Assembly: GCA_028047635.1 (NCBI GenBank)
Contig: JAOFXR010000009.1
Location: 14,902 to 78,901, forward strand
DNA from: Verrucomicrobiales bacterium
GTDB taxonomy: Bacteria > Verrucomicrobiota > Verrucomicrobiia > Verrucomicrobiales > DEV007
DNA length: 64,000 bases
Direction of reading: 5' to 3'
A program made the translations under genes and the position numbers. Positions 11,642-46,088 of the stretch are shown here, piece by piece. Under the pieces are notes generated by a model. It was not told the DNA's origin. It saw only the letters and a list, made by a program, of their open reading frames with translations, and did not search any database. Positions within the stretch are counted from its first letter, which is position 1. The number at the start of each line of letters is the position of its first letter.

Positions 11642-12537
11642 GCCACCCCATCGAAGTTGAACATCTTACGAAACGATTCGGAAAACTGTCGCCGTCGATG
11701 ATCTCTCTTTCACGATTCCGGAAGGGCAAGTTACGGCTTTCCTTGGATCCAACGGAGCAGGCAAAACGACAACGATTCAGACGGTCCTAAATTTGCACCA
11801 CCCCACCGATGGCAATGCCCGACTCTTCGGGATCGACTCACGAAAATCCGGGCCGTCCGAGCTGCGGAAAATTGGCTACGTCTCGGAAAACATGGAACTG
11901 CCCCTCTGGATGACCGTTGAGCAGTATCACAAATACTGTCGACCGTTTTACCCGACCTGGGACGACGACTTTTGCGTCCAGCTCATGGAAGAGTTTCAGC
12001 TCCCCGCTGACAGAAAGCTACGCAATCTCTCACGCGGCATGCGGATGAAAGCAGCCCTCATCGGAGGAATCGCCTATCGCCCGAAACTCGTCATTCTCGA
12101 CGTACTTTTTTTCCGGACTCGATCCCCTCGTTCGCGATGAATTTATTCGCGGCCTCCTCCGCATGACTGGAGAGGAAGGTTGGACCGTCTTCCTCAGTTC
12201 TCATGACATCGAAGAAGTCGATCGGCTAGCCGATCGGGTCATTCTAATCGATTCAGGAAAAAAACGGCTCGACGAAACCGTTGAGGCTCTTCTCGGAAAA
12301 TGTCGAAGCGTCGAAGTCATCAGAGAAGAAACCGACACGCCATTCGAACACCCAAAAGAGTGGCTCGATTACCGCGAGGTCGGACGAACAATCAGCTTCA
12401 GCGTGGCCGAAGCGAGCGAAGCTCTCGAAGACGAAATCAAGCGCCTCATCCCCGGCGCCGACCACATTCACACGAGAGAAATGTCCCTCCGCGAAGTTTT
12501 TGTGATGATGGCGCAACGTTTTCGCATCGAGTCATGA
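11638..12537 (+). pseudogene. YtrB-like ABC ATPase, frameshifted
   Basis: MSHPIEVEHLTKRFGK / frameshift ~11685 / GSNGAGKTT...LSRGMRMK / frameshift at T-run ~12110, where DEPFSGLD has decayed. Confidence 0.85.
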
Positions 12538-16477: not shown

Positions 16478-17041
16478 ATGACTGAGTCCCCCACCCCGAA
16501 TCCCGGTGAGCTAAGGCAGAAATTTTCTGCTCAGATGCGAGATCACCATCGCGAACTACTCGTCTTTGCTACCGCCGCATCAGGTTCACGTGAGTCGGCC
16601 AAGGATATCGTTCAGGAGTCTTTTGTTTCCGCCTGGAAAAGTTTCGAGCGATTCGATGAGTCACGGGACTTCGGGGCCTGGATGCGGGGAATCGTCCGCA
16701 ACAAAACGAAAGACTGGTTCCGACGCCAGCAACGGAATCCCATTTTCGACATGGAACTTCTCGACCGCGAAGTTGGCGCCTGGCAGACAGCAAAGGAGTC
16801 GGGCAGTTCGATTTTTGCCATCGTAACTGCCTGCGTTGGCAAACTCCCTACGAATTACCAATCAGCGGTTCAGGCATTCTACTTTGAAGAGCGGGAAGCC
16901 AATGAAGCCTCCGAATCGCTCGGAATATCACCCGCTAATTTACGAAAACGCCTCCAACGAGCCCGCGCTCTTCTCCACGACTGCATCGCGGCACAAACCC
17001 ACCCTCAAACAGAACTCCAAACCGAAAACGCTCATGTCTAA
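16478..17041 (+). CDS. ECF sigma-70 factor
   Basis: AKDIVQESF, FGAWMRGIVRN, region 4 LRKRLQRAR. Confidence 0.9.
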   Translation: MTESPTPNPGELRQKFSAQMRDHHRELLVFATAASGSRESAKDIVQESFVSAWKSFERFDESRDFGAWMRGIVRNKTKDWFRRQQRNPIFDMELLDREVGAWQTAKESGSSIFAIVTACVGKLPTNYQSAVQAFYFEEREANEASESLGISPANLRKRLQRARALLHDCIAAQTHPQTELQTENAHV

Positions 17042-19814
17042 TTTTCCCCCACTCGAATCAGACAGAAACGAAAGCGATGTGCCTGTCGATGCCTTGCTCA
17101 ATGAAGTCGCCGCGAATGAGAATGGCGATGATGAAACTTTTCTGGAGTCAATGGAGGCTGCGATTGATGAGGCTGATGTAATTCCTTTGCCCGCCGCTTC
17201 TTCGGGAAAATTTCGACCATTGTTGTTCTCAATAGCTATCGCTGCCTGTGCAGCGGCGGGCTTGTTCTACAGCCTCACGCTCACCCTATGGGAAGATCCG
17301 CCCATTCCTTTCACTGTTGGAATGAGTTCAAATACAAGAGATTTCATTGGCTGCGGCCCCGGCTTGAAACGCTTAGAAGTAAAACCAGACCGCGAAGCAA
17401 TTCCACTCGCGACCATTACGCCAAAAATCGATCCGGCTGTGACGCAACCGCTTGATACAACCGGCTCGCTAGCCTCAATTTCCTATGTTAGAAGGCTTCA
17501 AGAACAAGTAAAACTAGCAGACGGAGGAGCCCTGCGCGGCTCCAAACTCATGGCTGATGGAGACTATCAAGGCGCAATTGATCAATACAGGAATGCACTC
17601 GCTCTTTTGCCTGACGCCCCCATGACGAAACCGCGCCGCTTTGCCTACACAAAACAGTTCGCACGCGCCTCTGTGCTGTTCGGCAGAAACCGAGCCGATG
17701 AAGGCAGATACCCGGAGGCCATTGCCGCGGTTGAAGAAGTGCTCCAACCGAGCGTAGATCCCGACAGTATTGATGCGAAACGGTTGCTCGATCAATTGAA
17801 TGACCCTGACTATTATTCTCCCACATTGACGCCTTCTCATTTGCAAAGAGTGCGTCGTGTGAAATTAGCACTCAAAACCGGCCAGGGTTATATCGACCTT
17901 GGTGACTACGACCGAGCTGACCGCGAATACCACAAAGCGCTCTCGGACGACCCTTACAATGTGGCCGCGCGACGAGGACAGGAAAACATCGAACGCCATC
18001 GCATGCATTATTATGAAGCTGCCTACGATCACACGAGGCCGAAGATGCTTCGACAGGTCGCTGCTGGCTGGGAATCTCCGACGCCTTCCGACAATGCACC
18101 CGTTGCTGATGCGACAGGTAAAACGAACAGCATAATCTCCTCGACTGCCTTCTCAAACTTCAGCGTCCCCTCTTTGAGCGAGCCATCCGCTCCCGCAAGC
18201 CGCTCTGAAATTTCCTGGACAGGACTATCCGCCTCAAACGGACTCAGAGGCGACTCTATCGTAAGTCAGCACCTTCGCAGCAGCCCCATGACAGGTGCCG
18301 GCTCGATTGAGGAGATCGCTCGCTGGGGGACTGAACCTACATCAGAAGCCCCCTCCTCTAAATTAGCAATCTCCATCCCGATAGCCGAATCAATCTCCAA
18401 ATCCCAATATCCCGCCCTAGTCGACAATTCCTGGGCATCGCCTCTGACCGATCCACTCTCCACCTTCTCTACCGATGTGGACACCGCCTCATGGACGAAT
18501 CTTCGTGCCATGATCCGTGACGGCTCTGCGCTCAGGTTCATTCCCAAAGACGCGGTCCGTATCGAAGAAATGATCAACTACTTCGACTGGAACTACCCGA
18601 AGCCAAAAGGCGAAGATCCGTTTTCCATCCAACTGGAAGCAGCACCCTGCCCGTGGAACGACAAACACCAACTCTTGAGAATCGGTCTACAAGGCAAAGA
18701 AATACCCCGTATCGATCGTCCACCCGCGAACCTCATTTTTCTCATAGATGTTTCAGGCTCGATGAATGAGCCGAACAAACTTCCCCTTTTAAAAGAAGCC
18801 ATCGCCATTCTCGTCGAAGAACTCAGTAGCGAAGACAAGGTCGCCATCGTTGTTTACGCCGGATCAGAAGGCGTTTCCCTACCACCCACTTCCGGCCGAG
18901 ATCGGGAGACGATTCTCGGAGCACTCGAAAACCTGAAATCAGGCGGCTCCACGAACGGAGGAGCCGGAATCAAACTCGCCTACCGTCTCGCCAAGGAACA
19001 GTTTATTAAAAAGGGAATCAATCGAGTCATTCTCTGCACTGATGAAGATTTCAACGTCGGGCTCACTGGAACGAAAGAACCCGTCAACCTCGTCGAGAAT
19101 GAGGCGAAAGCGGGAACCTATCTGAGCGTGCTCGGATTCGGACAAGGTAACTTGAACGACGCAATGCTCGAAGAAGTGACCAATCGTGGAAATGGAAATT
19201 ACTTCCATATCAACGGTCTCAAAGAAGCTAGAAAGGTGCTCTTGAGCGATCTCATGGGGACACTGGTGACCATCGCCAAAGACGTCAAAATCCAGGTAGA
19301 GTTCAATCCCGCTCACGTCGCGAAGTACCGACTCATCGGATACGCCAACCGAAAACTTGCTCCGGAGGACTTCGCGAATGATAAAATCGACGCTGGAGGA
19401 ATTGGTTCAGGCCATACCGTGACAGCCCTTTACGAGATCGTTCCCGGCAAGGCACAACCAGCTCCCCCTGAACTTCGATATCAAAGCGACGGCACTCCAA
19501 CTGAAACGAAGGAACTGATTCCAAGCGAAGAACTCGCTCTCATCAAACTTCGCTATAAAAAACCGCAGGAAGACATCTCAATTCTAATGACCGAAACAAT
19601 TCTTCCTCCTAACATGGTCGACTCGCTCACTTCCCGCGACTACCCCTTCGCCGCAGCTGTTGCGCTCTTCGGAATGATTTTACGAAATCATGAAGACGTC
19701 AAAGACGCCACCTTGCAGGAAGTGATCGCACTCGCAGAACCATCCATCGGACCTGATCATCTTGGCTATCGAGCCGAGTTTCTTGAGCTGGTCAAAGAAC
19801 TTTCCCAAAACTGA
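17034..19814 (+). CDS. Membrane-anchored TPR + YfbK-type vWA (DUF3520) protein, putative anti-sigma partner
   Basis: ATG 17034 overlaps the sigma gene end; acidic N-terminus, one TM, TPRs, STFSTDVDTAS, VRIEEMINYF, DVSGSM MIDAS, TIAKDVKIQVEFNP. Confidence 0.85.
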   Translation: MSNFPPLESDRNESDVPVDALLNEVAANENGDDETFLESMEAAIDEADVIPLPAASSGKFRPLLFSIAIAACAAAGLFYSLTLTLWEDPPIPFTVGMSSNTRDFIGCGPGLKRLEVKPDREAIPLATITPKIDPAVTQPLDTTGSLASISYVRRLQEQVKLADGGALRGSKLMADGDYQGAIDQYRNALALLPDAPMTKPRRFAYTKQFARASVLFGRNRADEGRYPEAIAAVEEVLQPSVDPDSIDAKRLLDQLNDPDYYSPTLTPSHLQRVRRVKLALKTGQGYIDLGDYDRADREYHKALSDDPYNVAARRGQENIERHRMHYYEAAYDHTRPKMLRQVAAGWESPTPSDNAPVADATGKTNSIISSTAFSNFSVPSLSEPSAPASRSEISWTGLSASNGLRGDSIVSQHLRSSPMTGAGSIEEIARWGTEPTSEAPSSKLAISIPIAESISKSQYPALVDNSWASPLTDPLSTFSTDVDTASWTNLRAMIRDGSALRFIPKDAVRIEEMINYFDWNYPKPKGEDPFSIQLEAAPCPWNDKHQLLRIGLQGKEIPRIDRPPANLIFLIDVSGSMNEPNKLPLLKEAIAILVEELSSEDKVAIVVYAGSEGVSLPPTSGRDRETILGALENLKSGGSTNGGAGIKLAYRLAKEQFIKKGINRVILCTDEDFNVGLTGTKEPVNLVENEAKAGTYLSVLGFGQGNLNDAMLEEVTNRGNGNYFHINGLKEARKVLLSDLMGTLVTIAKDVKIQVEFNPAHVAKYRLIGYANRKLAPEDFANDKIDAGGIGSGHTVTALYEIVPGKAQPAPPELRYQSDGTPTETKELIPSEELALIKLRYKKPQEDISILMTETILPPNMVDSLTSRDYPFAAAVALFGMILRNHEDVKDATLQEVIALAEPSIGPDHLGYRAEFLELVKELSQN

Positions 19815-21410: not shown

Positions 21411-22658
21411 TCAGCCTTCAAACCGCTCAACCAGCAGTGAGGCGTTATGGCCACCGAATCCAAAGGAGTTGGTCAACGCGCGATCCACTTTCATCTCACG
21501 CGCCGTGTGCGGCACGTAATCAAGATCACACTGAGGATCAGGATTATCGAGATTGATCGTCGGGGGAGCAATCCCCTCGTTGATCGCTTTCACGCACACC
21601 GCAAGCTCCACGCCCCCGGCGGCACCAAGAAGGTGGCCTGTCATCGATTTTGTTGAGCTCACAACAAGCCCGTCTTTAGCATACGGACCAAAAACTGATT
21701 TGATCGCTTTTGTCTCGCCAATGTCTCCCAAACCGGTCGAGGTTCCATGAGCATTGACGTAGTCTACCTGCTCAGGATTCAACTTGGAATGCCGAAGCGC
21801 CATCTCCATGCAGCGACGAGCGCCGTCACCATCAGGGTGCGGTGATGTGAGATGATGGGCGTCTGAAGAAATGCCATAGCCGGTGAGTTCCGCATAGATA
21901 CGTGCTCCACGCGCTTTCGCGTGCTCGAGCTCTTCGATTACACAAACACCTGCCCCTTCTCCCATAACGAAACCATCCCGGTCTACGTCAAACGGACGGG
22001 AAGCCCGCTCCGGATCATCATTACGCATACTGAGCGCTTTCATGTTTCCGAACCCGGCAAGCCCCATTGGGCAAATTGTTGACTCAGAACCGCCGGCCAC
22101 AAAGGCGTCGGCATCACCGAATTTAATCATCCTCCAAGCTTCCCCGATGCTATGCGTTGCGGTCGCACAGGCGGTGACGATACACATATTTGGACCGCGG
22201 AGATCAAACTCAATTGACACCATACCGCTGGCGATGTTCGCAATCATCATCGGAATGGTGAACGGAGAAACGCGCGACGGAGATTTTTCAAGCAGGTTCA
22301 CGTGCTGATCTTCAAGGGTTCCGAGCCCCCCGATACCACTTCCGACCATACAACCGAAGCGATCCTTGTTAACCTTGTCAAAATCGATTCCTGAATCCTC
22401 AATTGCCATCACCGAGGCCGCCATTCCCAGTTGGGCAAAGCGATCAGCACGACGCGCATCCTTGTATTCTTTGAAATAAGGCTTCGCATCAAAATCTTTC
22501 ACCATGCCCGCAATCTGACAGTCGTGTGGCTCTAGTTTCGGAGTGTTGAGATTCGTAATCCCACTCTTTCCGGCGGCCAGATTTGCCCAGAAGTCTTCCA
22601 CGTTGTTTCCAACCGGAGAGACAACACCCATTCCTGTAATAACGACACGACGATCCAT
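21411..22658 (-). CDS. fabF: 3-oxoacyl-ACP synthase II
   Basis: RRVVITG, TACAT catalytic Cys, NAHGTST, KSMTGHLLG, NSFGFGGHN. Confidence 0.96.
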   Translation of the reverse strand: MDRRVVITGMGVVSPVGNNVEDFWANLAAGKSGITNLNTPKLEPHDCQIAGMVKDFDAKPYFKEYKDARRADRFAQLGMAASVMAIEDSGIDFDKVNKDRFGCMVGSGIGGLGTLEDQHVNLLEKSPSRVSPFTIPMMIANIASGMVSIEFDLRGPNMCIVTACATATHSIGEAWRMIKFGDADAFVAGGSESTICPMGLAGFGNMKALSMRNDDPERASRPFDVDRDGFVMGEGAGVCVIEELEHAKARGARIYAELTGYGISSDAHHLTSPHPDGDGARRCMEMALRHSKLNPEQVDYVNAHGTSTGLGDIGETKAIKSVFGPYAKDGLVVSSTKSMTGHLLGAAGGVELAVCVKAINEGIAPPTINLDNPDPQCDLDYVPHTAREMKVDRALTNSFGFGGHNASLLVERFEG

Positions 22659-22721: not shown

Positions 22722-22961
22722 CTATATCTCAATGATCCGCTCTCTCTCGTTCATCGCCCCACAACGCGGACATTCTGCCAAATCACGCTCCGAAAGATCC
22801 TCAAAAACATGATCGCAAATACCACAAATCACGAAGTGCTTCCGTCTCCTGTTCTCTCGGCCTTTCCGAAAGATTTCAGCAGCCACCCACGCAAAGAAAA
22901 GAGCGCACAGTATCACCACTAAATACACGGCAATCATGCCATCTAACGTCACGTGAAACAT
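22722..22961 (-). CDS. Small TM + Zn-ribbon protein
   Basis: N-terminal TM, basic patch, CGIC...CPRC. Confidence 0.7.
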   Translation of the reverse strand: MFHVTLDGMIAVYLVVILCALFFAWVAAEIFRKGRENRRRKHFVICGICDHVFEDLSERDLAECPRCGAMNERERIIEI

Positions 22962-23038
22962 CGTAATTAAAAATCCGCAGCCCCCGCATCTTTCCAGGGT
23001 CCACTTTCAAGCCACTCTCCAACCACGAAGAGCAAAAA

Positions 23039-23761
23039 TCAACCTTCGACAAAGATCTCCATCGACCCCGTTTCCGACTCGCTTCCCGGATTAAATCGCA
23101 AGGTAGACTCAACGAGCGCTCTGAGTTCCTCCTCCTCTGCCTTCTCCAGCTCGGATTCGATGCCGGTGATCTTCACATTACCTTCCGGTGAAACGGTCAC
23201 TTCGAAATGAAGACTTGGGAATGCATCAGCCATCTCAAAGTAGTCCTTCATGATCGACCAGGGGGCTATTCCACGAACCCTCAGGGTATCACTGAGCCGA
23301 ACCGTTAGATTTCCGGAAACCGGCTTACCACCAACAGTGTTACCTGTGCCAATCTCCTCAAGAGGTGAAATGGCTCCGGGAATCGTCCAGCGATACCGCA
23401 ATGGCACGAGGGGAATCACGGTCTCCTGAAATGCAGGAGTAAACCTTACCGGACTATCCTTGAGACGAATTCTCACGTCTGCAGACGCAGAAGCCGGTTT
23501 GAGGTAAATTGTCCGGTCACTGACCCGCTGAAGAATAGTTCTCACCGACGGGTTCGATGGGTCGAGAAGACTGATTCGTTCAGGATCGGTATCTGTCCGA
23601 ACGGGATCCGGATAGTCTACTTGGAAAAGGTAGAATCCGGATCCGTGAATGAGGATCGATACGATAAGAAAGGCGAGAACATACAACCAGAGCCCCTTTT
23701 CCCGGTCCCAATTAAAAACCCGCCCCCTTTCGTCTTCTTCGTCCCCCGGTTCGATCGCCAT
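23039..23761 (-). CDS. TonB/TolA-like single-pass energy transducer
   Basis: TM with SILIH (SxxxH-type) motif, C-terminal VTVSPEGNV...LRFNP resembling TonB_C; follows exbD. Confidence 0.6.
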   Translation of the reverse strand: MAIEPGDEEDERGRVFNWDREKGLWLYVLAFLIVSILIHGSGFYLFQVDYPDPVRTDTDPERISLLDPSNPSVRTILQRVSDRTIYLKPASASADVRIRLKDSPVRFTPAFQETVIPLVPLRYRWTIPGAISPLEEIGTGNTVGGKPVSGNLTVRLSDTLRVRGIAPWSIMKDYFEMADAFPSLHFEVTVSPEGNVKITGIESELEKAEEEELRALVESTLRFNPGSESETGSMEIFVEG

Positions 23762-23787
23762 ATCTGTATCCCTGATGAGGTTTTACG

Positions 23788-24192
23788 TTAAGGAATTTCC
23801 TGCTGGGTTGCGAAAGAGAGCTCAAATCCCTGCTGTATAACCAAATTTGCGATCTTCATCACGGAACCGTAATCGACTTCTTCATCACCCAAAAGAATAA
23901 CCTCTTTCGAACGCTGCATCGAATCATCCAGCGCGGCCGGCAACTGTTCAAGAGTGATCCACTGGTCGTTAAAGTAAAACTTAGACATCTCGCCGGGGAT
24001 TACCGTAATGATGTGCGCATCCTCAGCGGAAGGAAGCGACGCAGTTGAAGTCGGTAGTTTCACTTCGAAACCCGATTTCAAAACCAGATTGGAGCCAAAA
24101 AGAAAGAAGATGATCAGCATCAGGATCACATCAATCAGCGGAGCGGTATAAAGCGCGCCGCCTCGATCACTCAATGTGGATTCCAGTTTCAA
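23788..24192 (-). CDS. exbD: ExbD/TolR-family protein
   Basis: APLIDVILMLIIFFL with conserved Asp; GDEEVDYGSVMKI. Confidence 0.88.
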   Translation of the reverse strand: MKLESTLSDRGGALYTAPLIDVILMLIIFFLFGSNLVLKSGFEVKLPTSTASLPSAEDAHIITVIPGEMSKFYFNDQWITLEQLPAALDDSMQRSKEVILLGDEEVDYGSVMKIANLVIQQGFELSFATQQEIP

Positions 24193-24215
24193 GTCTCGGC
24201 TTCGATTGGATTTAC

Positions 24216-24908
24216 CTACTTATCGTCCTGATTCGAAGAAGACTCATCGTCCCCCTCTTCCCGCGGCGCCTCGGGACGCATCGAAATAATATCGCCTGTA
24301 TGAGTCCGAAGATCACAAATCGTATTCACGATCTCAATACCGGCACTCTCCATGTCGTGCATCAAATTTTTAGCGTATGCCTTGAGATGAGAGTAGAAAA
24401 CAAAAGAGGGAATTGCGACCATAAGGCCGGCCGCAGAAGTAATAAGCGCTTCGTATACCCCCTGGGATATCTCGGCCACGCGAACAAAGCCACCGACTGC
24501 GCTGATCTGCACAAAGGTATCGACCAGACCAAGAACCGAGCCAAGCAATCCAATCAGCGGAGCGATGTAGGCAACCGTGAGTAATACCGAAAGGTGCTTT
24601 TCAAGCTTGGGAACTTCCAGTTGCCCACTCTCCTGGACAATTTCTTTAAGCTCACTGCGTGGCATTGAATATCGCCGAATCGCAGACTGAATAACCCGCG
24701 CTGCAGGGCCGGGCGTTGAGACACACTCTGACAGGGCTTCCGAATAGGCCTTATTCTTGATGAGGTTTCGCAATCCGAAAAGCAAGTCACCGACGTCGAT
24801 TCGCGCTCTATGAAAATAGAACAATCGCTCTAGAAAAATGGCAATAGCAATCACCGAACAGCCTAAAAGAAGCCACATGAGCGGCCCGCCTTTTGTAATA
24901 AGATCCAT
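24216..24908 (-). CDS. exbB: MotA/TolQ/ExbB proton channel protein
   Basis: KGGPLMW, APLIGLLGSV, EALITSAAGLMVAIPS; start placed at ATG 24908. Confidence 0.88.
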   Translation of the reverse strand: MDLITKGGPLMWLLLGCSVIAIAIFLERLFYFHRARIDVGDLLFGLRNLIKNKAYSEALSECVSTPGPAARVIQSAIRRYSMPRSELKEIVQESGQLEVPKLEKHLSVLLTVAYIAPLIGLLGSVLGLVDTFVQISAVGGFVRVAEISQGVYEALITSAAGLMVAIPSFVFYSHLKAYAKNLMHDMESAGIEIVNTICDLRTHTGDIISMRPEAPREEGDDESSSNQDDK

Positions 24909-24999
24909 AGAAAATAAGACGGAGCTATCTTCCCCGAAGCCCAATCATAAGCACAATCCAGCCAACGGGCAAAGAGATTCCCCCACTTGAGAGAAGAGG

Positions 25000-26352
25000 T
25001 TAAAAGTAAAACGGGCCGGCTGCCCTGCCTTCGGATTCGTCGTCGATATCGTCATCTTCAGATTCCTCGACGTCGACAGGAGCCGGTTCAGCCTCGTCCT
25101 CCTCTTCCTCGTCGATCTCAAAAGCAATTGAAGGAGAATCACTCTCATCTTCCGCGCCTCCGGCTTCCGATTCAACAAATTCGAAAACCGTGCCTTCGTC
25201 TTCATCCTCTTCATCAGAAACGTCTTCTGAAGAGTCAGGGTCCATTTCAAACACAATCTCAGACGCCTCGTCAGCTTCGACCTCAAAGACACCGGCTGCT
25301 GCATTTGAATCGACCACGACTTCGCGATCAACCTCCACATGTTCAGGCGCCGTTGCGTTGAAATCGACCTCTTCGAATGGACTCTTTTTGAGACTTGGCT
25401 GCTCAATAATAATTTCAGTATCCCCGAAATCCAGAGGTTCAAGAATTTCTTTAGGTTCAGGTTCCCCAATCACTTCAGGTTCCTCGTCTTCCTCGTCTTC
25501 CTCGTCCTCTTCAATCGCTTCAAAGATCGACTCCGGAACCACTTCCTCCGCTACAATTGGCTCAGGCGCTTCAACTGCCGCTACCCCATCTTCTTCGAGA
25601 GTCTCCTCAATGAAAACTTCCTCCACCTCTTCAGGCTCCACTTCCGCGATCGGTTCCAACTCTATCGTTGATTCTTCGATTGCTGCCTCTTCTGCTGCCG
25701 CCGCCTCAATCGGTTCAGGTTCAACACGAACTGGAGGCTCCTCAGCCTTCCCAACGATCTCAACGGGTGTCTCAGGAATCTCATTTTCCTCGAGAAAGAT
25801 CGCCGGCGCTAAAAGTCGGTTCGCAGTGCGCTTAAGCGACATTGAACGAAGCGACTTTATCGGAGCGAGTTCGTTTTCCGCCTTGGGCGGATCCGAAGGC
25901 TTGATGCCTGAAAGGATATCCTGCAACGCATCGCTTACTTTGGACGCTTCCTCCCGCACAATCCCTGCAGGCGTCGAACAATCAGAAACACCCACAAGGA
26001 TAAAACGATTGATCATTTCGCGAAGATAAAGCAACCGATCGCCCCCTTGGTGAAGGCTCTCGATGTTCCCTGTCTCCCCTAGTTCTTTCACGAGCGCGCG
26101 CATCGCCCCGCTGGCTCCTGCAACGAGAGCGGAAATCACATCAATGGTAACCTCCGCTTCTGAAGAAATACCCGCAACCAGCGCTCCGCTGCGATCCACC
26201 ACGAGCGCCGTCTCAAGTCCCGCTTCTTCCGCAAAACGGCGCAACAGGTCGTCCGCTTGCGCGGCTATTGCACTGCTGATTTCGAGAGTCTGCGCCGGAC
26301 TGAAATCCTCGCCTTCTCCATTTGATGTTTCACTCGTTTCACTCATTAACAT
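25000..26352 (-). CDS. MglB-like roadblock/LC7 protein with ~290-aa low-complexity, mostly acidic tail
   Basis: ALVVDRSGALVA...ISALVAGASGAMRALVKELGE...LHQGG matches MglB; directly after mglA. Confidence 0.82.
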   Translation of the reverse strand: MLMSETSETSNGEGEDFSPAQTLEISSAIAAQADDLLRRFAEEAGLETALVVDRSGALVAGISSEAEVTIDVISALVAGASGAMRALVKELGETGNIESLHQGGDRLLYLREMINRFILVGVSDCSTPAGIVREEASKVSDALQDILSGIKPSDPPKAENELAPIKSLRSMSLKRTANRLLAPAIFLEENEIPETPVEIVGKAEEPPVRVEPEPIEAAAAEEAAIEESTIELEPIAEVEPEEVEEVFIEETLEEDGVAAVEAPEPIVAEEVVPESIFEAIEEDEEDEEDEEPEVIGEPEPKEILEPLDFGDTEIIIEQPSLKKSPFEEVDFNATAPEHVEVDREVVVDSNAAAGVFEVEADEASEIVFEMDPDSSEDVSDEEDEDEGTVFEFVESEAGGAEDESDSPSIAFEIDEEEEDEAEPAPVDVEESEDDDIDDESEGRAAGPFYF

Positions 26353-26422
26353 TCATTAACACTCAGATATCCCTCTGGTAGAACTTGCGACAACCTTACC
26401 CTTCCTCACAAAAAATCGATTT

Positions 26423-27073
26423 CTAACTCTTAAGGGCAACCGCTACCTCAGACTCTCGCCTCGAAACACCCCGTCCTCGCTCTTTCCTAATGGTTTGGGA
26501 ATGAAATCCTTTGATGACTTGCTTTGTCAGATCATCAAGAGTGGCAAAGACCTGATATCCAGAGGTTGCACAGGCGAAAAATGAAGCACGCTTCACTCCA
26601 AACATTTGATCCATCACATCCGGACTCGTTGCATCCGCAAGATCACGCTTGTTATACTGGAAAGAAAAAGGAAGGCGGTCCGGATCAATGCGGTTCTCCT
26701 CGAGCGCGTTCCGACAATTCTCGTAAGCATTCAGATTCGAGTCCATCCTCGAAGTCGTCGAATCAGCCACGAACACAATGCCATCAGCTCCAGCGAGGAC
26801 ATTTTTGCGTGTCTCCGAAAGAACATCCTGACCGGGAACAGTATAAAGTTGGAAGCGGGTCTGATACCCCTCAATTTCCGTGGTGTGAATGGGAAGAAAA
26901 TCAAAGCTGATCGTTCGATTCTGATCCGTGGCTACCGAGATCAAATCACCACGCAAGTATGAGTCAAGACGACGATGAATGTAATGGAGGTTCGTTGTTT
27001 TCCCACCTTCAGGAGGTCCGCAATATACCAGCTTGAACTGAACTTCCCGGGTGTCATATCGAACGAGTGCCAT
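26423..27073 (-). CDS. mglA: MglA-family small Ras-like GTPase
   Basis: KLVYCGPPEGGKTTNL, RTISFDFLP, LYTVPGQ, DGIVFVADS, YNKRDL. Confidence 0.92.
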   Translation of the reverse strand: MALVRYDTREVQFKLVYCGPPEGGKTTNLHYIHRRLDSYLRGDLISVATDQNRTISFDFLPIHTTEIEGYQTRFQLYTVPGQDVLSETRKNVLAGADGIVFVADSTTSRMDSNLNAYENCRNALEENRIDPDRLPFSFQYNKRDLADATSPDVMDQMFGVKRASFFACATSGYQVFATLDDLTKQVIKGFHSQTIRKERGRGVSRRESEVAVALKS

Positions 27074-27079
27074 AGGTTC

Positions 27080-29104
27080 CTATTTTTCGAGTTTCTCCAA
27101 ATTTCGGGAAATAAGAATCAATTTCTCACGTGTCCCCGGTTCAAACTCCAGAGACTCATGATGAACAGTGAGGCAGCATTCACCATCAAGAAAAAGACTT
27201 ACAATCCCCTTGTCAGTATGCAGAGTGAACGATTGAGCATCGGGCAGTCCAGTCAGTTTTGCTAAATTACGAATCGTTTGAACCATCTCTTTCGCTTCAT
27301 CTCCGATTCGGCTTTCCTCATTCCGGGAGGCTTGGACAAGACGCCCCGGCGTAGCAAGCGCGCAACTGGCAATCCCCGGCAAGGCAACCACTCTTCGGGC
27401 GACTGATCGCAAGGTAAACGAATCGCTGGTGGAGAAAATGGCTCTCAGCTCAAGATCTCGAATTTCACCTGACAGGGAAAGACCGGGAATTGCAGCCGGG
27501 GCTGGAGCGGCCGGCGCTTCAGTCGCGCGCTCCTGCTTCACAACCGGCGCGGGAGCAGTCTCAGGCTCGACAGATACCGTTGAAGGGAGGGGTTGGAGGG
27601 GCTTTAGCGAAGCGGCAGGGCTTCCCGAAAAAGCAGATCCAGTTGCATTTACTGAAGGAGAAGGAGTAAGTGTAGCCGCAGCATCGGGTAAAACCAGAGT
27701 CTCCGGTTTGGATTCAACCGCTTCAGGCTGGGGAGTCGGCGCTTGGGCAGCTGGCTCTTCTTTGACTTCTGAAAATCCTTGTGGAGCTGGCGGTGCGGCA
27801 GGCTCGAATCCAAATGAAGGAGGGCTCGCTTCTTCTTTAACCGAGGGCTCAGCCTCATCGCTCTCAAAAATGTCAGCGGAAGGCGAATCCACTTGAAACG
27901 CCGCGGGCAGTTCGTGTTCCTCATCTAAAGGAGGCAGAAACAGCCCGTAGTCATCTTCGTCATCGCTGTGATCAGCAGGACTCCCAAAAGCGCTCCCTCC
28001 CGCAGGCTTGGGAGCAGCACCAACACTCTTAGGAATAAGATTTCCGATACTTTCAAAACCATTACTCCCGTCCTCGGATTCGGATTCCGGCTCAGCCTTC
28101 GCATCGAACATCGTCCCCCAGGTTACCTCGGTAGCCTTTTCCGGCTGAGGAGCCGCTCCTTTAGGTGAATTGGATGCCGGAGAGGGAAAGGGAATTTCAG
28201 AATCCTCTTCGGCCTGAGTCGGAAAAAGCGTCGAATATCCCCCTTCACTTTCAAAAGGATTACCGGAAAACTGAGAACCAGGTGAAGACACCGCCTCCTT
28301 TGGGCTTTCTTTTCCAGGAGCAGCCATTTGTTCAAACGGATTGGCCCCCGCGGGACTCGGTGCAGAGAATCCATTCTGAACCGGGTCCGGAGCCTGAGGC
28401 GCCGGCCCATCCGCCCTACCCGTGGCCGGGTTGAAAGAGGGGGGAGAAGGACTCTTCTCCTGAGAAGTTTCAATGCCTCCCAATCCTTGCGGTGGTTTGC
28501 TCTCCGAACTGCTTGAGGCGGCTCGCGGTTGGGAGTGTGACTCGCTCATATTACTTGGGGGCTGCTGTGGGGTGCCAGGTGCCTCGTCACCATCGTCAGG
28601 TGACCAGAAAGGGTTCGATTTTTCAGAAACAGGCGCCGCTGGAGAGGCCTTGGATGCAGGCGCCGCTGCTGAAGCGGCCATTCCCGGAGGCTTCAAAAAA
28701 CCATTTCCGGAAACCAAAGGAGATTTCGCTTGAGACGCTGGATTCGGAATATTGCCCAATTTAGCCGGCAAAGTTACCGTAGATTCGTTCAATGGAGTAA
28801 TTTCCGCTGCGAACAATTCAGGACAGACCTGATAAATAGTAGAGAGCAACACATCGTTGAACCCATCCGGCGAAAGGGGAATATCAACTTCCTTCGTCAT
28901 CGGTATCCCCGCCTCTGCCGCAATAGCGGGCGGAATGAACGGTAACAGCTCACTCACCTGAAATACCTGACTTCGAATGGGCTTACCAGCACCTTCTTCC
29001 GGAGAAAACGGCGCCTGATGCCTCGTATCGCCACCCGCTGGAGCGGCGGCGCCTTCGGAATCCCCGTCCTCGGGGTTGAAGATATTTCGAAATGAGAATG
29101 TCAT
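27080..29104 (-). CDS. Pro/Ser/Ala-rich scaffold with N-terminal folded domain and C-terminal roadblock-like domain
   Basis: 674 aa, long low-complexity middle; C-terminal VALPGIASCALAT...SFTLHTDKGIVSLF pattern. Confidence 0.7.
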   Translation of the reverse strand: MTFSFRNIFNPEDGDSEGAAAPAGGDTRHQAPFSPEEGAGKPIRSQVFQVSELLPFIPPAIAAEAGIPMTKEVDIPLSPDGFNDVLLSTIYQVCPELFAAEITPLNESTVTLPAKLGNIPNPASQAKSPLVSGNGFLKPPGMAASAAAPASKASPAAPVSEKSNPFWSPDDGDEAPGTPQQPPSNMSESHSQPRAASSSSESKPPQGLGGIETSQEKSPSPPSFNPATGRADGPAPQAPDPVQNGFSAPSPAGANPFEQMAAPGKESPKEAVSSPGSQFSGNPFESEGGYSTLFPTQAEEDSEIPFPSPASNSPKGAAPQPEKATEVTWGTMFDAKAEPESESEDGSNGFESIGNLIPKSVGAAPKPAGGSAFGSPADHSDDEDDYGLFLPPLDEEHELPAAFQVDSPSADIFESDEAEPSVKEEASPPSFGFEPAAPPAPQGFSEVKEEPAAQAPTPQPEAVESKPETLVLPDAAATLTPSPSVNATGSAFSGSPAASLKPLQPLPSTVSVEPETAPAPVVKQERATEAPAAPAPAAIPGLSLSGEIRDLELRAIFSTSDSFTLRSVARRVVALPGIASCALATPGRLVQASRNEESRIGDEAKEMVQTIRNLAKLTGLPDAQSFTLHTDKGIVSLFLDGECCLTVHHESLEFEPGTREKLILISRNLEKLEK

Positions 29105-29339
29105 GACGTCAGTTGAAGGAGTGAGAGGATTTTTACAAATGAACTCACTCTCAAAAAAAGCAAAACCGATGGAACCACCCTAAAAGTATGAATATTTTAG
29201 TAAATTGAGATTAAAGTGGTAAAAACCAAATTATCAAGATGTTTTTACTATTAAGATAATTTAATTAAAATTCTATTTCTCCCCATAGAATATAACGACT
29301 GCTTACCTCACTAAACCGGCAAAAAAACCGGTGGCACAC

Positions 29340-34093: not shown

Positions 34094-36181
34094 CTAGCGG
34101 GATCTCATGAGGACGACCCGAAAGCCAACATCATAACGATCTTTCGCCGATGGTCCCGCACCCATGCGGTTGCCGACCTTCAGATCGAACTGAGACGATC
34201 GGTTCCAGGCGCCGCCACGCAGCACCTTGCGATCGGTTCCAACCCAACTTTCATTAGGGGTGGCATCTTCTTTACGCATACGGCTCACGATGGTTTGTGA
34301 ATACCAGTCGCCGACCCACTCCCAGACGTTGCCTCGAACATCATAAAGCCCGAATTCATTCGCCGCGAGAGAACCCACCGGTGCGGTTGATTTTTGACGC
34401 TCAAAAAGACTGGAGACGGCACCATCCAACTTCTGAACGCCGACAAAATGGCTCCACTCCTGATCCGAAGGAAGCCGGTAACGATACCCCTGCGGAAGCG
34501 TCCCGCGGGCACTTTCCTCTCCGGTCAATGCTTCGCAGAACTTCATCGCATCATACCAGGTGACACTGTCGACGGGATGCTTCGGCGATTTAAAATAACT
34601 GGGATTCGCTCCTGTCGTTCTCTCAAAAAGCTCCTGGGTCACCTCGCGCGCTCCCACCCAGCCATCGAGGCGGCCGAACCAAACCATTTCCTGGCCGATT
34701 CCATTCTTGAAATTCCGGGTCATCACCGGGGTCACATCAAACTTCAAAGACGCGGAAAAATCCAAAGAACCGCCGGGTTCGACGACACCGGAAACTCTCG
34801 TGCTCCGATGCTGCGCCTTAGTTAGCTCATAAGTGTAACTCCCGGGAGGAACCACCGAAAGCGTTAGTGGCGTGCGCCCAAGCGGAACTCCACCCGAGAT
34901 AACCGCAGCCTCGGCTGGATCGCTTTCGATAAATACCTTGCCGTAATCAAACTCAAAGTTCACCACGTTTGATCCGGCTTCCGAATCGATATAAGCCGCT
35001 GAATTGACTTCACTTAAACGATCAAACCTTGAGGCAAACTGATATTCGCCCTCGGGCATCTCAACTGCAAAAGGCGTTACCTGACTTCCATTCCCCAGTC
35101 TTCGCCCCCCCTGAAATACCTCTGCTCCCGGAGGATCACTCACGAATTGCACGAGCGCGCGCTCCCAGGCAAATTCGAGATCCTGAGTCACACCGTCGCG
35201 CACCTCAACGGTTCGGCGTATTGGCTCCCAATCAGCATTTCGCAACTCGATAGTGTGCTTTCCGACAGGCAAATCAGGCATACTCATCGGGGTCGAACCC
35301 GCCTTCCTCGCATTTCCATCTCCACTTTGAATCCACAGCTCAGCCCCGTTCGGATCGCTCGTTACATTGAGTCCCCCTTTGGCGAAAACAGCAGAAACCG
35401 ATGCATTCCGATTATTCTCGATCCGAACCATCTTGGAATATTCAGGCCAACCTTCCACTGCCATCAAAATCTGATACTCACCGGGATCGAGCTTTTCAAT
35501 TCGTGCCGGCGTCTTTCCAACCTCAATCAGCTCCTTTCGCTCATCCCCAGCTCTTTTGATTAATTTAAAATCGGCCCCAACAGGCTCGCTAACCACATCA
35601 ATCCCCCCCGAAGTTTTGCGCAGTTCAACCGACACAAGATCGATCACCTCCTCATTCTCAACATTCACGGTGCGCTCCACCGTCTCAAAACCTTCTTTTT
35701 TAATTCTGACGAGGTGCTTACCCATGGGAATTCCAGCAAAGCGTGCCGGAGAAGTCTGTTCATCAATCCCCTTCAATTCGATCACCGCACCGGACGGCAC
35801 CGTGCTCACTGAAATAATGCCTTTTGCCTCGTCGAGATGTCTATCAATCAAGGGAAGTGAAGCAATAGCGATAGGATTCTCTTGATCGATTTCAATCACG
35901 TCCTGAAAATGACGTCGGGCCTCAAGCCATTCGCCTCGGGCGACCGCTTCACGGGCCTGCACAATGAGCGGCGTTACTTTGGACGAATCCACTCCCGATG
36001 GGAGATTTGACTGCTTAGGGAGAGAACTCGCTTTCTGCTTCCCGAAGTAGAGACCGCCACCGATTCCGACTGAGAGAGAGAACAACACGAGAACAATCCA
36101 GCCCCACCGTGGAACCTTAGTTCCCGGTCGAATGCTTCGCCTCGGCGGCAAATCAATATTGGTTGTATGGCGTTCCATCAC
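34094..36181 (-). CDS. TM-TPR-multi-PEGA-FGE/SUMF1-domain protein
   Basis: SxPxGA PEGA repeats, YRLPS, GLYDVRGNVWEW, RGGAW, GFRVV. Confidence 0.85.
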   Translation of the reverse strand: MMERHTTNIDLPPRRSIRPGTKVPRWGWIVLVLFSLSVGIGGGLYFGKQKASSLPKQSNLPSGVDSSKVTPLIVQAREAVARGEWLEARRHFQDVIEIDQENPIAIASLPLIDRHLDEAKGIISVSTVPSGAVIELKGIDEQTSPARFAGIPMGKHLVRIKKEGFETVERTVNVENEEVIDLVSVELRKTSGGIDVVSEPVGADFKLIKRAGDERKELIEVGKTPARIEKLDPGEYQILMAVEGWPEYSKMVRIENNRNASVSAVFAKGGLNVTSDPNGAELWIQSGDGNARKAGSTPMSMPDLPVGKHTIELRNADWEPIRRTVEVRDGVTQDLEFAWERALVQFVSDPPGAEVFQGGRRLGNGSQVTPFAVEMPEGEYQFASRFDRLSEVNSAAYIDSEAGSNVVNFEFDYGKVFIESDPAEAAVISGGVPLGRTPLTLSVVPPGSYTYELTKAQHRSTRVSGVVEPGGSLDFSASLKFDVTPVMTRNFKNGIGQEMVWFGRLDGWVGAREVTQELFERTTGANPSYFKSPKHPVDSVTWYDAMKFCEALTGEESARGTLPQGYRYRLPSDQEWSHFVGVQKLDGAVSSLFERQKSTAPVGSLAANEFGLYDVRGNVWEWVGDWYSQTIVSRMRKEDATPNESWVGTDRKVLRGGAWNRSSQFDLKVGNRMGAGPSAKDRYDVGFRVVLMRSR

Positions 36182-40499: not shown

Positions 40500-42734
40500 C
40501 TACTCCCCGGAAGTTGGAGCCACTGCCGGATCGACTTCCGGCTCTGAATTAGCCGCTGGCGGAGTAGCTGCATCGTCTACTTTCTTCTTCTCCCCCTTAT
40601 CTTTCCACTTTCCTTTCGGCTTACCATTCTTCGGCTTGGCCTTTTCAGCACCACGCACCGGGTTCTCTACCTCGGAGACAATACGAAATCCGGTCAGGAA
40701 ATTCTTTTCATTCGCTGACTCAGCTGCGCGGCGCGCCGTCAGCTCGAAACCGGAAGTGGTCGCAAATGAAGCACCTCGCTTCAACGGCACCTGCTTATCG
40801 GGCTGGTCGGGGTGAGCGACCCACGTTCCGGTCCACTCACTGACATTTCCAGCGAGGCCAAATACGCCGTAACGACTCTCATCAGCCGCGATCGCATCAA
40901 CCGGACACCAATATTTGTAACCATCAATGGAGCCTGCTTCCGTCCCGTCTTTGGACTCATGATCAATACCGCTGTTAAAATTGGCATTCACCTTCTCGTC
41001 CCCCCAGGGAAATTTACTGCCGGCCCGACCACGTGCCGCTTTCTCCCACTCCTGTTCAACAGGAAGACGACCTCCGCGCCATTTGGCGTAGGCGTGTGCG
41101 TCCCACCAATCGACGCCAACGACCGGGCAATTCATGTCAATTTCGCCACCGTGGAAAGTCCCCTCCCTTTTTGCATCCTTCAGCACTTCGGCCCAGCGTT
41201 CAGGCTCATAAGTTAACTTCGTTTCCGGCTGATCAGAGTGGCGCAGCGAAACGATTTTATTCGGGTGAGCATTAATGTCGTCGAGGAATTCGGCGTAGTC
41301 CGCGATCGTGACTTCATACTGCCCAATCCAGAACTCAGGCAGCTCAATCTCCTCACCATCCTGAAAAGGAAACACGCCGGAAGGAATCTTGGTAAGCCCA
41401 TTCAACTTTCGAATGTTCGGTTCTGACCCGAGAAACAGAAAAGCAGCCAGCCCGGCGAGAATAAGAACTCCCACAAGAGTTCCCACGATTAGCGCATTCT
41501 GATTCGACTTTTTTTCGGTCATCACCGCGATATCGCGATCTGAGAGTTCCTGTTCGCCTGAGGCTTCAATGGCAGACTGCAAAGCCTTGATCGAATTAAT
41601 TCCGTCAATTCGATCCGTCCCGAGACGGTCCACTAGAGAAAAAAGATTCCTGTCGATGCCCGGCTTCTGCACAAACGGCGCAAGCGCTTCACCGAGGAGT
41701 TCCATCTGCTCGCGCTCTTCCTGCGGGGTAATAACGACACCCACACCCTTGACCGGATTGGCGATACGAGGCTCAGCCCCTTTCACGACAAGAATACTCT
41801 GCGCTGTGAAAAGCCGATGCGACATCACATTTTCGCGGAGGTAATTCAAGGCATCGGCACAAGACTCCAATACCTTCCAAATCACACCTTCCTCCAGATC
41901 ACTGCGACGACGCGCGAGATCGCTCAAGCTCGGAGCATCGACCAGTTCCAGGGTATAAAAATTAACACCCAACTCCTGGTCGCACTCATACACAAGCGAA
42001 ATGGCCGGATGATTCACCGAGGCTCGCGCACTCGCCTCATTCACAAATCCTTGAACCCAATTGATGTCTTTGCGATGCTTTCGGTAGAGTGTCTTCAACG
42101 CCACTCGGCGACCAATTGAGGTTTGCTCTGCTTCATAGAGAGCAAAATTATCGTCCTCTTGAATCTCGCGAAGCAATTTGTAGTCACCAAGACGCATCCC
42201 CACGGGAAGGGCAGCCTCAGGAAGTGAGACCGCTACCGAATCCACTTGAGGAAGCGGTTCGGCGGGAGGCTCGCCACTTGGCGCCGTTTCAATCTCCGGC
42301 GGAGGAGACCCTACAGGCTCCTGCGTGCTTGCTGTACAACCTTCCCGGGCCTCGCCATCAGCGGCCGTTTGATTCACACTTTGCTCGAACCACTCAATGA
42401 GAGCGCCTCGATTCACCGGCTTGAAAAACAAACGCTCATTCTTAAAGACGCGCTCATAAAACTCGGTCATATCGCCATGACTGCAAAAGACACAGGGAAA
42501 CAGACCCATCTCTCCCTGCAAATGATCTCTAAAATCAAGAATATCAACGCCCACCTCTGCTGAGAGACCTGCGATCATAGAAGAAACCCGCCCGATATCA
42601 CGCGTCAGATCCCAGGCTTCGGCCGCATTATTTGCCTCAATAAAACGATCAACTCGTTCATCGAGCACTGATCGCACCGCAGCGCGATCTTCAGGTGAAG
42701 CATCAATAATTAAAACAATTGTCTCTGTCGACAT
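40500..42734 (-). CDS. Pseudo-receiver + pseudokinase + TM + FGE/SUMF1-domain protein
   Basis: REC-like N-terminus, RRVALK but HRL and no DFG, TM, RLPVEQEWEKAARG, GNVSEW. Confidence 0.8.
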   Translation of the reverse strand: MSTETIVLIIDASPEDRAAVRSVLDERVDRFIEANNAAEAWDLTRDIGRVSSMIAGLSAEVGVDILDFRDHLQGEMGLFPCVFCSHGDMTEFYERVFKNERLFFKPVNRGALIEWFEQSVNQTAADGEAREGCTASTQEPVGSPPPEIETAPSGEPPAEPLPQVDSVAVSLPEAALPVGMRLGDYKLLREIQEDDNFALYEAEQTSIGRRVALKTLYRKHRKDINWVQGFVNEASARASVNHPAISLVYECDQELGVNFYTLELVDAPSLSDLARRRSDLEEGVIWKVLESCADALNYLRENVMSHRLFTAQSILVVKGAEPRIANPVKGVGVVITPQEEREQMELLGEALAPFVQKPGIDRNLFSLVDRLGTDRIDGINSIKALQSAIEASGEQELSDRDIAVMTEKKSNQNALIVGTLVGVLILAGLAAFLFLGSEPNIRKLNGLTKIPSGVFPFQDGEEIELPEFWIGQYEVTIADYAEFLDDINAHPNKIVSLRHSDQPETKLTYEPERWAEVLKDAKREGTFHGGEIDMNCPVVGVDWWDAHAYAKWRGGRLPVEQEWEKAARGRAGSKFPWGDEKVNANFNSGIDHESKDGTEAGSIDGYKYWCPVDAIAADESRYGVFGLAGNVSEWTGTWVAHPDQPDKQVPLKRGASFATTSGFELTARRAAESANEKNFLTGFRIVSEVENPVRGAEKAKPKNGKPKGKWKDKGEKKKVDDAATPPAANSEPEVDPAVAPTSGE

Positions 42735-42742
42735 AAAGCGAT

Positions 42743-44017
42743 TCAAGGGGTAAGCGGATCCGGAAACAAGGCATTATCAGGTCCAAGGAAAACTGGCGCT
42801 TTCTCTTCCTGATCAGGAGACTCCTGAATTCTGAGAGCGGCAATCTCTTCGGGCATGGTAACTTTATCCTGCAATTGGTCACGGTAATAAAGTTCAATTG
42901 CGTATCCATAATAGCGCCGCTCACCAAGTTCTCTAGCCTGTTCTTCAGAAAACACCGGTTGATGATAATTTACCACAATTTCCTCCGTTCCATCAACAGC
43001 CCAATCGTACGGCTCCGTGGGATAAAGCTTTGAGGTATCTGCCGTCGAAGCCTCGATTGTCTGACCATCGACAATATCGTAAAAATATACCGCCAGAGCT
43101 AAATCAGCTCCCGAAGGAGAACTGGAAGCACTCGCATCCACAATCACCCGCAGTGACACTTTCTGCCCTTGCTCATCAGGCTTTGCCTCGTTGACGATTA
43201 CTTCTCCTATTTTCATCTGCTGCACGGTCGATCCCGCAAGCGGCACTTGATCACCTTCGAGAACACCATTCGCGATTCGATAATAATCGCCGGAAGCGAC
43301 CGGCCCCAAATCGACAATGCGAGCCCAATGGACTAGGGCATCCGCTTCGCGACCGAGTTGATTGTAGGTCGCAGCCAACTCTCCTAACACGCGGGGATGA
43401 TTGGGAAGCGCCCCTTCAACTTGCTTAAACGCATCGAGAGCGCCCATCGGATTGCCTCCTGCGCACAACTCTTCCCCTGCAGCCATGAGTCGATCAAGAA
43501 CAGGGTCATCAATTTTTTCGACCGTAAGTTGAGCCGCCGCCAGCGATTCACTGAGAGACTGATCATTGCTCTGACCGCCGGAGAATGGGGGCTCAGGCAA
43601 AATGGAGGCCTTCGAAAAAGGTCGAACTTCAATCCCCGAACTGGAAAACTCCCCCCCGACGTTCGAACCGCCAATATTTCCGGGAAGCCCCGGTCCCAAC
43701 CCGCGGGAGGAATTCGTAAAAGCCTCAGATTCGGAAGCAATACTCCCCCCTCCAGTTCCCTCAGGCACCTTTCCATTCTCAACGAAAACGGCAGCAGGAT
43801 CCATGAAATTGCCAGTCGAATCAGCCCCTCCAACGGTCGCCGGGCCGGATGTCGACGCGACGCCGTCGCCGCCAGGCTGGAACCTTTTCGCCGGGCGGCG
43901 CAACATTTCGAGCGCAGACGCGAAAAAAAGCGTCGCGGCAAGCGTGCCTACCACCCACATCACCGAATTGAAGGTCTGACCATAATCGGCCCGATCTGAT
44001 AACAGGTTATCCGCCAT
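42743..44017 (-). CDS. Membrane-anchored TPR protein
   Basis: N-terminal TM, Gly/Ser linker, TPR helices, beta-rich C-domain. Confidence 0.65.
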   Translation of the reverse strand: MADNLLSDRADYGQTFNSVMWVVGTLAATLFFASALEMLRRPAKRFQPGGDGVASTSGPATVGGADSTGNFMDPAAVFVENGKVPEGTGGGSIASESEAFTNSSRGLGPGLPGNIGGSNVGGEFSSSGIEVRPFSKASILPEPPFSGGQSNDQSLSESLAAAQLTVEKIDDPVLDRLMAAGEELCAGGNPMGALDAFKQVEGALPNHPRVLGELAATYNQLGREADALVHWARIVDLGPVASGDYYRIANGVLEGDQVPLAGSTVQQMKIGEVIVNEAKPDEQGQKVSLRVIVDASASSSPSGADLALAVYFYDIVDGQTIEASTADTSKLYPTEPYDWAVDGTEEIVVNYHQPVFSEEQARELGERRYYGYAIELYYRDQLQDKVTMPEEIAALRIQESPDQEEKAPVFLGPDNALFPDPLTP

Positions 44018-44271: not shown

Positions 44272-44589
44272 GTGAGCAGTCATTTATCCAGCGACATCCA
44301 GATTGAAGGCGACCTTAACTGTTCGACCGACCTCATCTTTGATGGTTCCATTAAAGGAAATATTAACTCCAAAGGAAGCCTGACGATTGGTCAGAACGCC
44401 TCCGTCTCAGGAGACCTCGAAGCCGACAAGGCAATCATCGAAGGAAAAGTTGCCGGCAACGGGGATTTCAATTCATGTCGCCTTTCCCCCACTTCCATCA
44501 TCACTGGTTCCGTAAGCACGGTCAGTCTCCAGATGGAAGAAGGTGCATCACTCGAAGGCCAGTGCAAAGTGGGTAAGGCCAAAGCCTGA
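44272..44589 (+). CDS. Bactofilin (polymer-forming cytoskeletal protein)
   Basis: IEGDL..DGSIKGNI..LTIG..VSGDL..IIEGKV..LQMEEGASLEG beta-helix pattern. Confidence 0.92.
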   Translation: MSSHLSSDIQIEGDLNCSTDLIFDGSIKGNINSKGSLTIGQNASVSGDLEADKAIIEGKVAGNGDFNSCRLSPTSIITGSVSTVSLQMEEGASLEGQCKVGKAKA

Positions 44590-46060: not shown

Positions 46061-46088
46061 TAAAACAGCAAAGGGCAAAGGCGAAACG

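Follow-up and report, generated by a model that had tools for sequence, protein, structure and literature searches.

An MglA switch and an ExbB-ExbD-type envelope module adjoin in a Verrucomicrobiota genome, probably as two separable units

In Myxococcus xanthus, type IV pili are controlled through MglA-GTP, SgmX, and PilB (PMC7519303), and GltJ, whose cytoplasmic parts are GYF and zinc-ribbon domains, binds MglB through its zinc ribbon (PMC11135422). A 1:2 MglA:MglB arrangement is known in a small subset of the group-1 MglA proteins, and in the part of that survey drawn on here the Verrucomicrobia are placed only under group 5 (PMC4316618). The core of the Agl-Glt system has been located in other phyla (PMC3169522), and vWA proteins have been proposed as motor-linked transducers in bacteria of the Planctomycetes-Verrucomicrobia-Chlamydiae (PVC) group (PMC12204202; all sources are cited here for parts of their content). 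Here we describe a locus in a stretch of 64,000 nucleotides from a Verrucomicrobiales bacterium (assembly GCA_028047635.1, contig JAOFXR010000009.1, positions 14,902 to 78,901; hereafter the window), in which genes for an MglA-family GTPase and two roadblock proteins directly precede a motor block of exbB, exbD, a TonB-like gene, and a zinc-ribbon gene. The original prediction, made from the window alone, suggested that this may be a single GTPase-steered machine for motility or polarity. The evidence does not support this: mglA and mglB are each lost in genomes with the motor intact, and the switch is found more often with pilB. As the motor is phylum-wide and MglA rare and patchy, their pairing likely reflects old gene order and not such a machine, and on balance we favor two genetically separable modules that adjoin through ancestral gene order.

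The locus consists of seven intact, co-oriented open reading frames on the minus strand (22722-29104), as first reported, with gaps in order from gene A to gene G of 6, 70, 91, 23, 26, and 77 nucleotides; one correction is that fabF, 63 nucleotides 3' of G, makes an eighth co-oriented gene. The features are:

27080-29104, minus strand: gene A, 674 amino acids
26423-27073, minus strand: mglA, Arf/Ras-like Pfam match at 2.2e-05
25000-26352, minus strand: mglB-like gene, Robl_LC7 (PF03259) at 4.9e-07
24909-24999, minus strand: spacer between mglB and exbB, with a hairpin and a sigma70-like site
24216-24908, minus strand: exbB, MotA_ExbB (PF01618) at 2.5e-27
23788-24192, minus strand: exbD, ExbD (PF02472) at 4.2e-18
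23039-23761, minus strand: gene F, predicted TonB/TolA-like transducer
22722-22961, minus strand: gene G, 79 amino acids, transmembrane helix and predicted zinc ribbon
21411-22658, minus strand: fabF, housekeeping neighbor outside the system, used as a gene-order control
29105-29339, minus strand: AT-rich intergenic region, sigma70-like sites at 29223-29194

To judge the distribution of the two parts, 200 genomes of the phylum were searched with a profile of G, which matches 160 of them, nearly always in single copy, and with MglA as a single-protein query, which matches 11 of the same 200, all at 1e-41 or better; it should be noted that these two counts come from different kinds of query. An ExbB orthologue is encoded by 40/41 relatives and by 119/121 genomes in the order of genome G085 (L, G, and f label loci, genomes, and families), which is probably the sister order Chthoniobacterales; MglA is found there in 55/121. 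Of 20 regions sampled around G in diverse families, 15 have exbB-exbD directly upstream of it, with G separate in the other five and in some f4 and f5 genomes, and the neighbors of the block across the phylum are housekeeping genes (guaB, guaA, fabF, hisD, recA) or a large TPR gene. The zinc-ribbon gene of families f11, f12, and f21 (L139, L140, L141, L153) lies away from exbBD, preceded by rplQ or smc and followed by guaA. In a tree that omits ExbB reading frames shorter than 190 amino acids or cut at locus ends, 34 ExbB orthologues form one clade (support 100/96), in a region neighbored by TPR-linked paralogues; by this phylogeny the window ExbB is a member of a single-copy, phylum-wide clade with a vertical-looking history. 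Its sister is one ExbB of Nannocystis radixulma (L261/L304; 99/92), which is followed by an ExbD. Decay of the window copy is ruled out, every reading frame being open and conserved in G009, and a horizontal island is ruled out by window-like GC content and the vertical-looking ExbB clade.

Loss of the motor block itself can also be followed. In the receptor-free 0.9-Mb genome G126 (L138) exbB, exbD, and G are still there, F is broken, and the ExbD aspartate is replaced; in its 0.9-Mb sister genome G150 the whole module was not found; we read the two as stages of module loss. Both retain tolB-pal and another exbBD pair, the tolB-pal genes of G126 lying away from the block.

The linkage of switch and motor, which the original prediction put up for a survey of relatives, is present in some of them. 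Among 24 genus relatives the two are linked with an intact mglA in 11, linked with mglA lost in three, and apart in nine, one genome being left unassigned; in other families of the same order they are linked in 2/10 MglA-bearing genomes; and of 55 MglA-bearing genomes in the sister order 20 have them in line, seven convergent, and five at a great distance from each other, and in 23 the pair is split between contigs, in some cases because of assembly breaks, all of these being counts over relatives that are not independent draws. The seven convergent genomes are one family, in which the block is inverted with its breakpoint between mglB and exbB. The longest order seen in the sister order is pilB-A-mglA-mglB-exbB-exbD-F-G-guaB-fabF. 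Elsewhere, exbB or exbD was found near mglA in 0/8 loci from other Verrucomicrobiota classes and in 0/70 loci outside the phylum, within up to 6 kb. The control junction is more stable, as fabF adjoins G in 23/24 genus genomes and is thus a commoner linkage than that of switch and motor. The mglA gene is deleted in G014 and G022, where A and mglB are present, and a frameshift interrupts it in G019; the motor genes of all three are intact. Median identity within the genus is 91% for G, 86% for ExbB, and 61% for MglA. In the genus of the window the switch seems to be eroding or relaxed, with MglA at this low median identity and three losses; no linked PilB was found there.

The spacer between mglB and exbB carries a hairpin (24995-24978) and the motif TTGCCC-17-TATGAT (24972-24944), which by its sequence is likely exbB's own promoter; exbB starts with the ATG at 24908, and its relatives begin MDLITKGG. 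A sigma70-like motif stands before exbB in 19/25 genus loci (10/15 linked, 9/10 apart) against a mean of 0.14 and a maximum of 2 in shuffles and 0 matches before seven other genes, with the pattern derived from the same sequences on which it was counted, a circularity that weighs against using it as support for two modules. The window motif is a one-base variant which misses the strict pattern and was picked up by a separate consensus scan. Separate transcription of exbBD had been named in advance as speaking against a joint system, and the promoter-like motif points to it by inference only. The AT-rich region before gene A was correctly noted (32.8% GC against about 50% for the window) and is likely the promoter of A-mglA-mglB, to judge from its composition and motifs; the consensus scan gave 8 sites versus 5.0 +/- 2.2 in shuffles, which is weak alone, and as a generic promoter and terminator scan it performs at chance level.

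The gene identities first assigned are upheld by Pfam, by the MglA motifs, and by fold predictions for A and F, with a weak match for G. In the window copy the set of Ton parts is complete: ExbB, an ExbD with the conserved Asp21, and a TonB-like protein with S35xxxH39 and, on weak fold scores, a TonB-type C-terminal domain. Gene F encodes a short cytoplasmic N-terminus, the transmembrane helix with this motif, a linker, and the C-terminal domain, for which the top 10 Foldseek rows are all TonB (E 0.04-0.4) and the top 9 VIA rows are TonB, TolA, HasB, or FusB (Z 3.2-4.6), weak scores in both cases; TonB and TolA are tied (Z 4.6 vs 4.2). Pfam gave no family for A or F, and TonB_C matched one of the F orthologues scanned, weakly. 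F is given as a predicted TonB/TolA-like transducer. G has a transmembrane helix followed by basic residues and CxxC...CxxC, the four cysteines being invariant in 21 sequences; with 7 K/R after the helix and 0 before, a cytoplasmic position is predicted for the zinc ribbon. It matches the FmdB-type zinc ribbon weakly (8e-04, below cut-off), and the ESM Atlas offered nothing for it beyond hypothetical proteins and automatic "HypA family" labels. The coupling residues vary across the family: among 76 ExbD orthologues the aspartate is kept in 51 and replaced in 25 (18 Asn, 7 other), compared with 42/42 paralogues that keep it, and of 77 F orthologues 43 have SxxxH, 18 the His alone, and 16 neither.

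On the side of the switch, gene A encodes a small conserved N-terminal domain, a long Pro/acidic linker, and a C-terminal roadblock domain. Its last 135 amino acids were modeled as a roadblock fold (AF2, pLDDT 92), whose top Foldseek matches are roadblocks and the M. xanthus MglB (E 3e-04), and it is thus a predicted second MglB-like protein or scaffold. The only resemblance of the N-terminal domain is to hypothetical proteins from Verrucomicrobiota (score 0.87), which is no more than a lead, and the ESM Atlas gave nothing firm for it. The GTPase is, by its motifs, a group-1 MglA-family protein: it has the P-loop (GPPEGGKTT), the Arg finger (Arg53 in NRT, beside the G2 Thr), TVPGQ, and NKRD for NKxD, by which that group is recognized (PMC4316618), and, where the group calls for one at most four genes away, an adjacent coupled MglB homologue above the PF03259 cut-off; the profile detects canonical MglBs at about 1e-27. 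The product of the mglB-like gene is by its sequence a divergent roadblock homologue, as it reaches 47.1 bits (2.6e-12) against a cut-off of 200 for the MglB equivalog NF052242; it has a 290-amino-acid acidic tail (37% D/E), whereas beyond the genus the related proteins have a length of about 160 amino acids. Loci in Zixiibacteriota and Ignavibacteriales (L202, L236, L237) show a small roadblock, an extended MglA, and MglB in the same order as the window.

The neighborhoods in the sister order suggest what the switch acts on. The ATPase gene upstream of A is PilB-like in 10/10 such genes scanned; an orthologue of this linked PilB is encoded by 42/121 genomes at E<=1e-230, of which 39 also have MglA. 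In 28 of these 39 pilB directly precedes A-mglA (the other 11 pairs being on different contigs, some through assembly breaks), as compared with exbB following the switch in 20/55, and in 23 genomes pilB stays with the switch while exbB does not. From this analysis of gene order, A-mglA-mglB likely regulates polar type IV pili. PilT was tried as a predictor of MglA and fails, being present in 99/121 and 39/41 genomes regardless of MglA.

Family f58 has second mglA copies, four of four checked (L298, G240:C2:586472; L299, G306:C1:493931; G266:C2:633975; G278:C3:163741) lying beside a fragment of a PilB/GspE-family ATPase, with a pilin-like gene beside the second mglA in two loci scanned. The family also carries several extra A-type roadblocks.

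Under the two-module reading, exbB-exbD-F-G, near-universal in Verrucomicrobiota, would form a Ton/Tol-type inner-membrane complex with a likely housekeeping task in the envelope. The ExbB/ExbD motor would grip F via its SxxxH helix, as in the Ton and Tol families (PMC12204202), the TonB/TolA-like domain of F would act on a partner in the periplasm or the outer membrane, and G may serve as a membrane-anchored accessory subunit with a cytoplasmic zinc ribbon. The proton-coupling residues are intact in the window copy and eroded in about one third of the orthologues, and for part of the family this erosion makes a role as scaffold or sensor possible. In the second module, by analogy with M. xanthus, MglA-GTP would position or activate PilB, the putative target encoded just upstream in many relatives, and MglB would turn the GTPase off.

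Several observations weigh against this reading. No linked pilB (0/12), no MglB (0/4 tested), and no PilT (0/12, with 15 candidates scored per genome) was found in f58, and mglA nevertheless stands directly before exbB in 10/12 of its genomes; PilT is common in genomes without MglA. The linked PilB of G026 finds nothing above 45% identity in 30/31 MglA-bearing relatives, and the window genome and 39/40 relatives give no match above 46% to the linked PilB, which speaks against a purely pilus role. Given these PilB and PilT patterns, pili do not account for all MglA retention. Linkage spans two orders and is hence old, and no target of F was identified.

The alternative that survives best, although we regard it as doubtful, is facultative coupling, in which the roadblock of A (or MglB) binds the zinc ribbon of G and MglA then gates or positions an otherwise autonomous motor, perhaps with pili at the pole; GTPase control of the motor is in this sense possible. 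The GltJ precedent for zinc ribbon-MglB binding (PMC11135422) and the predicted cytoplasmic side of the G ribbon are in keeping with it. So is the persistence of A, which argues against our two-module reading: its roadblock is found in 96/121 genomes, including 42/66 without MglA, in 16 of these 42 (four families) it lies directly before exbB, and A and mglB outlive the mglA deletions in G014 and G022. Such persistence points to a partner that does not depend on MglA, possibly the motor, and A-mglA-exbB is also the order of the f58 genomes noted above. However, deletion of mglA-mglB from A-mglA-mglB-exbB would automatically put A beside exbB, and the split clusters of f15, f56, f62, and f19 leave A with pilB/mglA and not with exbB. 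The motor also persists where A was not found: A is missing from the matches in 25/121 genomes, nearly all with an ExbB orthologue, and in 4/5 and 5/5 further genomes, six of these nine (four MglA-less genomes of the order and two of other classes) having the motor block beside G. Conservation of G is no lower where mglA is lost. A broader version, slightly less credible to us still, is that the zinc-ribbon subunit of a phylum-wide Ton/Tol-type machine docks the roadblock scaffold and that MglA, where present, gates both the machine and PilB, which would make this a GltJ-like link of independent origin.

We hold it improbable that the block is an ordinary energizer, either ExbBD-TonB with distant receptors or the TolQRA part of a dispersed Tol-Pal system. 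The SxxxH helix and TonB/TolA-like fold of F would suit such a role, tonB is often found away from its partners (PMC12204202), relatives contain 2-3 receptors, and F is broken in the receptor-free G126. Yet the ExbBs are a single-copy vertical clade, and grouping them with three receptor-linked ExbBs, a group named after viewing the tree, is rejected (p-AU 0.0012), so that the comparison with nutrient-uptake motors called for by the original prediction yields no grouping with the three tested. Neither a receptor nor tolB/pal stands beside the block among the neighbors scanned, and none was found on the contig of the window, where the original prediction had seen none nearby. The frequent replacement of the ExbD Asp (25/76 vs 0/42 paralogues) and absence of the F His (16/77) are unexpected of an energizer, and G126 and G150 keep tolB-pal and other exbBD genes, G150 without the block. 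The window genome, which is 63% complete, has a single mglA and six genes that clearly belong to the ExbB family, with no TonB-dependent receptor found at that completeness; searches for TolB and OmpA gave nothing on the window contig, OmpA-family and weak TolB-like matches being on other contigs.

A gliding or surface-motility machine of the Agl-Glt type steered by MglA is very improbable: the locus does share its part types (a group-1 MglA, MglB, an ExbB/D motor, a TonB-like transmembrane protein, and a zinc ribbon; PMC3169522, PMC11135422), but every orthologous locus examined has a single ExbD instead of AglQ and AglS, GltD, GltE, GltG, GltC, and an outer-membrane partner are absent from the locus (a genome-wide search for the Glt core was not made), most of the phylum has the motor block without MglA, including a 0.9-Mb genome, the G profile matches nothing in five Myxococcota/Bdellovibrionota genomes (a weak negative), and the 70 mglA loci outside the phylum are without exbB/exbD nearby. 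Myxococcota exbB-exbD-exbD loci were considered as AglRQS candidates and set aside, all three being linked to TonB-dependent receptors, and the tree thus holds no verified AglR.

Elsewhere in the window, about 20 kb from the locus, a GYF_2 and RDD protein (49007-49960, minus strand) is followed by a small protein with a Cys motif (48374-48994, minus strand). A YfbK-like protein that combines TPR and vWA domains with a hydrophobic stretch is encoded at 16836-19814 (plus strand), a bactofilin at 44272-44589 (plus strand), and four FGE-sulfatase-domain proteins at 34094-36181, 40500-42746, 52917-54512, and 61712-64000 (minus strand), two with a kinase and two with PEGA. The impression that many accessory genes of the window decay is borne out in part: one ABC ATPase (11793-12537, plus strand) and one AcrB-family RND gene (45770-47909, minus strand) are split, as pseudogenes or assembly errors, and "many" is only partly seen in a survey that is incomplete.

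Neither the four-gene block nor the pilB link turned up in print, the supplements of PMC4316618 (gene neighborhoods) and PMC12204202 (transducer lists) being outside the scope of the search; the part of PMC12505986 used here holds nothing specific to the modules, and the literature searched yielded no transposon-essentiality data on the module. The exbB-exbD-F-G block is thus apparently an undescribed, phylum-wide envelope module made of parts from known families: single-copy, without a receptor or Tol-Pal partner, and with an often replaced Asp, it suggests an unrecognized envelope function of the Verrucomicrobiota that can be tested in cultured members, and the order pilB-roadblock-mglA-mglB would be a first clue to the function of group-1 MglA in the phylum.

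With the group-1 MglA systems that have two coupled roadblocks (Wuichet and Sogaard-Andersen 2014; PMC4316618) and with the MglA/MglB of M. xanthus and Thermus thermophilus, the switch shares the Arg finger, TVPGQ, NKxD, and an adjacent MglB; it differs in the order roadblock-mglA-mglB, where most of the loci examined outside Verrucomicrobiota have mglB before mglA, in the long linker and own N-terminal domain of A, in the acidic tail of MglB in the genus, and in a variable P-loop. With the MglA-SgmX-PilB pathway of M. xanthus (PMC7519303) it has group-1 MglA/MglB and an association with PilB in common, which here is genomic only, with pilB upstream in relatives and the genus of the window without a linked PilB. 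Agl-Glt (AglRQS, GltG, GltJ) likewise combines an ExbB/D-type motor, a TonB-like transmembrane protein, a zinc ribbon, and MglA/MglB, whereas here there is one ExbD, no Glt core in the locus, and a motor mostly without MglA; and against the single GltJ chain of zinc ribbon, GYF, transmembrane helix, and TonB_C, G is a separate protein of 79 amino acids with its helix before the zinc ribbon, and F has neither zinc ribbon nor GYF. The PVC transducers of the TPR-TolQ-TolR-TolR-vWA type (PMC12204202) are also orphan motors driven by proton motive force, and in other classes of the phylum exbB comes after a large TPR gene; the block differs from them in its one ExbD, its TonB-like and not vWA C-terminal domain, and its zinc-ribbon subunit. 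With ExbB-ExbD-TonB and TolQ-TolR-TolA, finally, the block shares homologous motor subunits, the SxxxH helix, and a predicted TonB/TolA-type C-terminal fold, and it stands apart from both by the missing linkage to a receptor or tolB/pal, the extra transmembrane zinc-ribbon gene, the frequent change of Asp to Asn, and its housekeeping neighbors.

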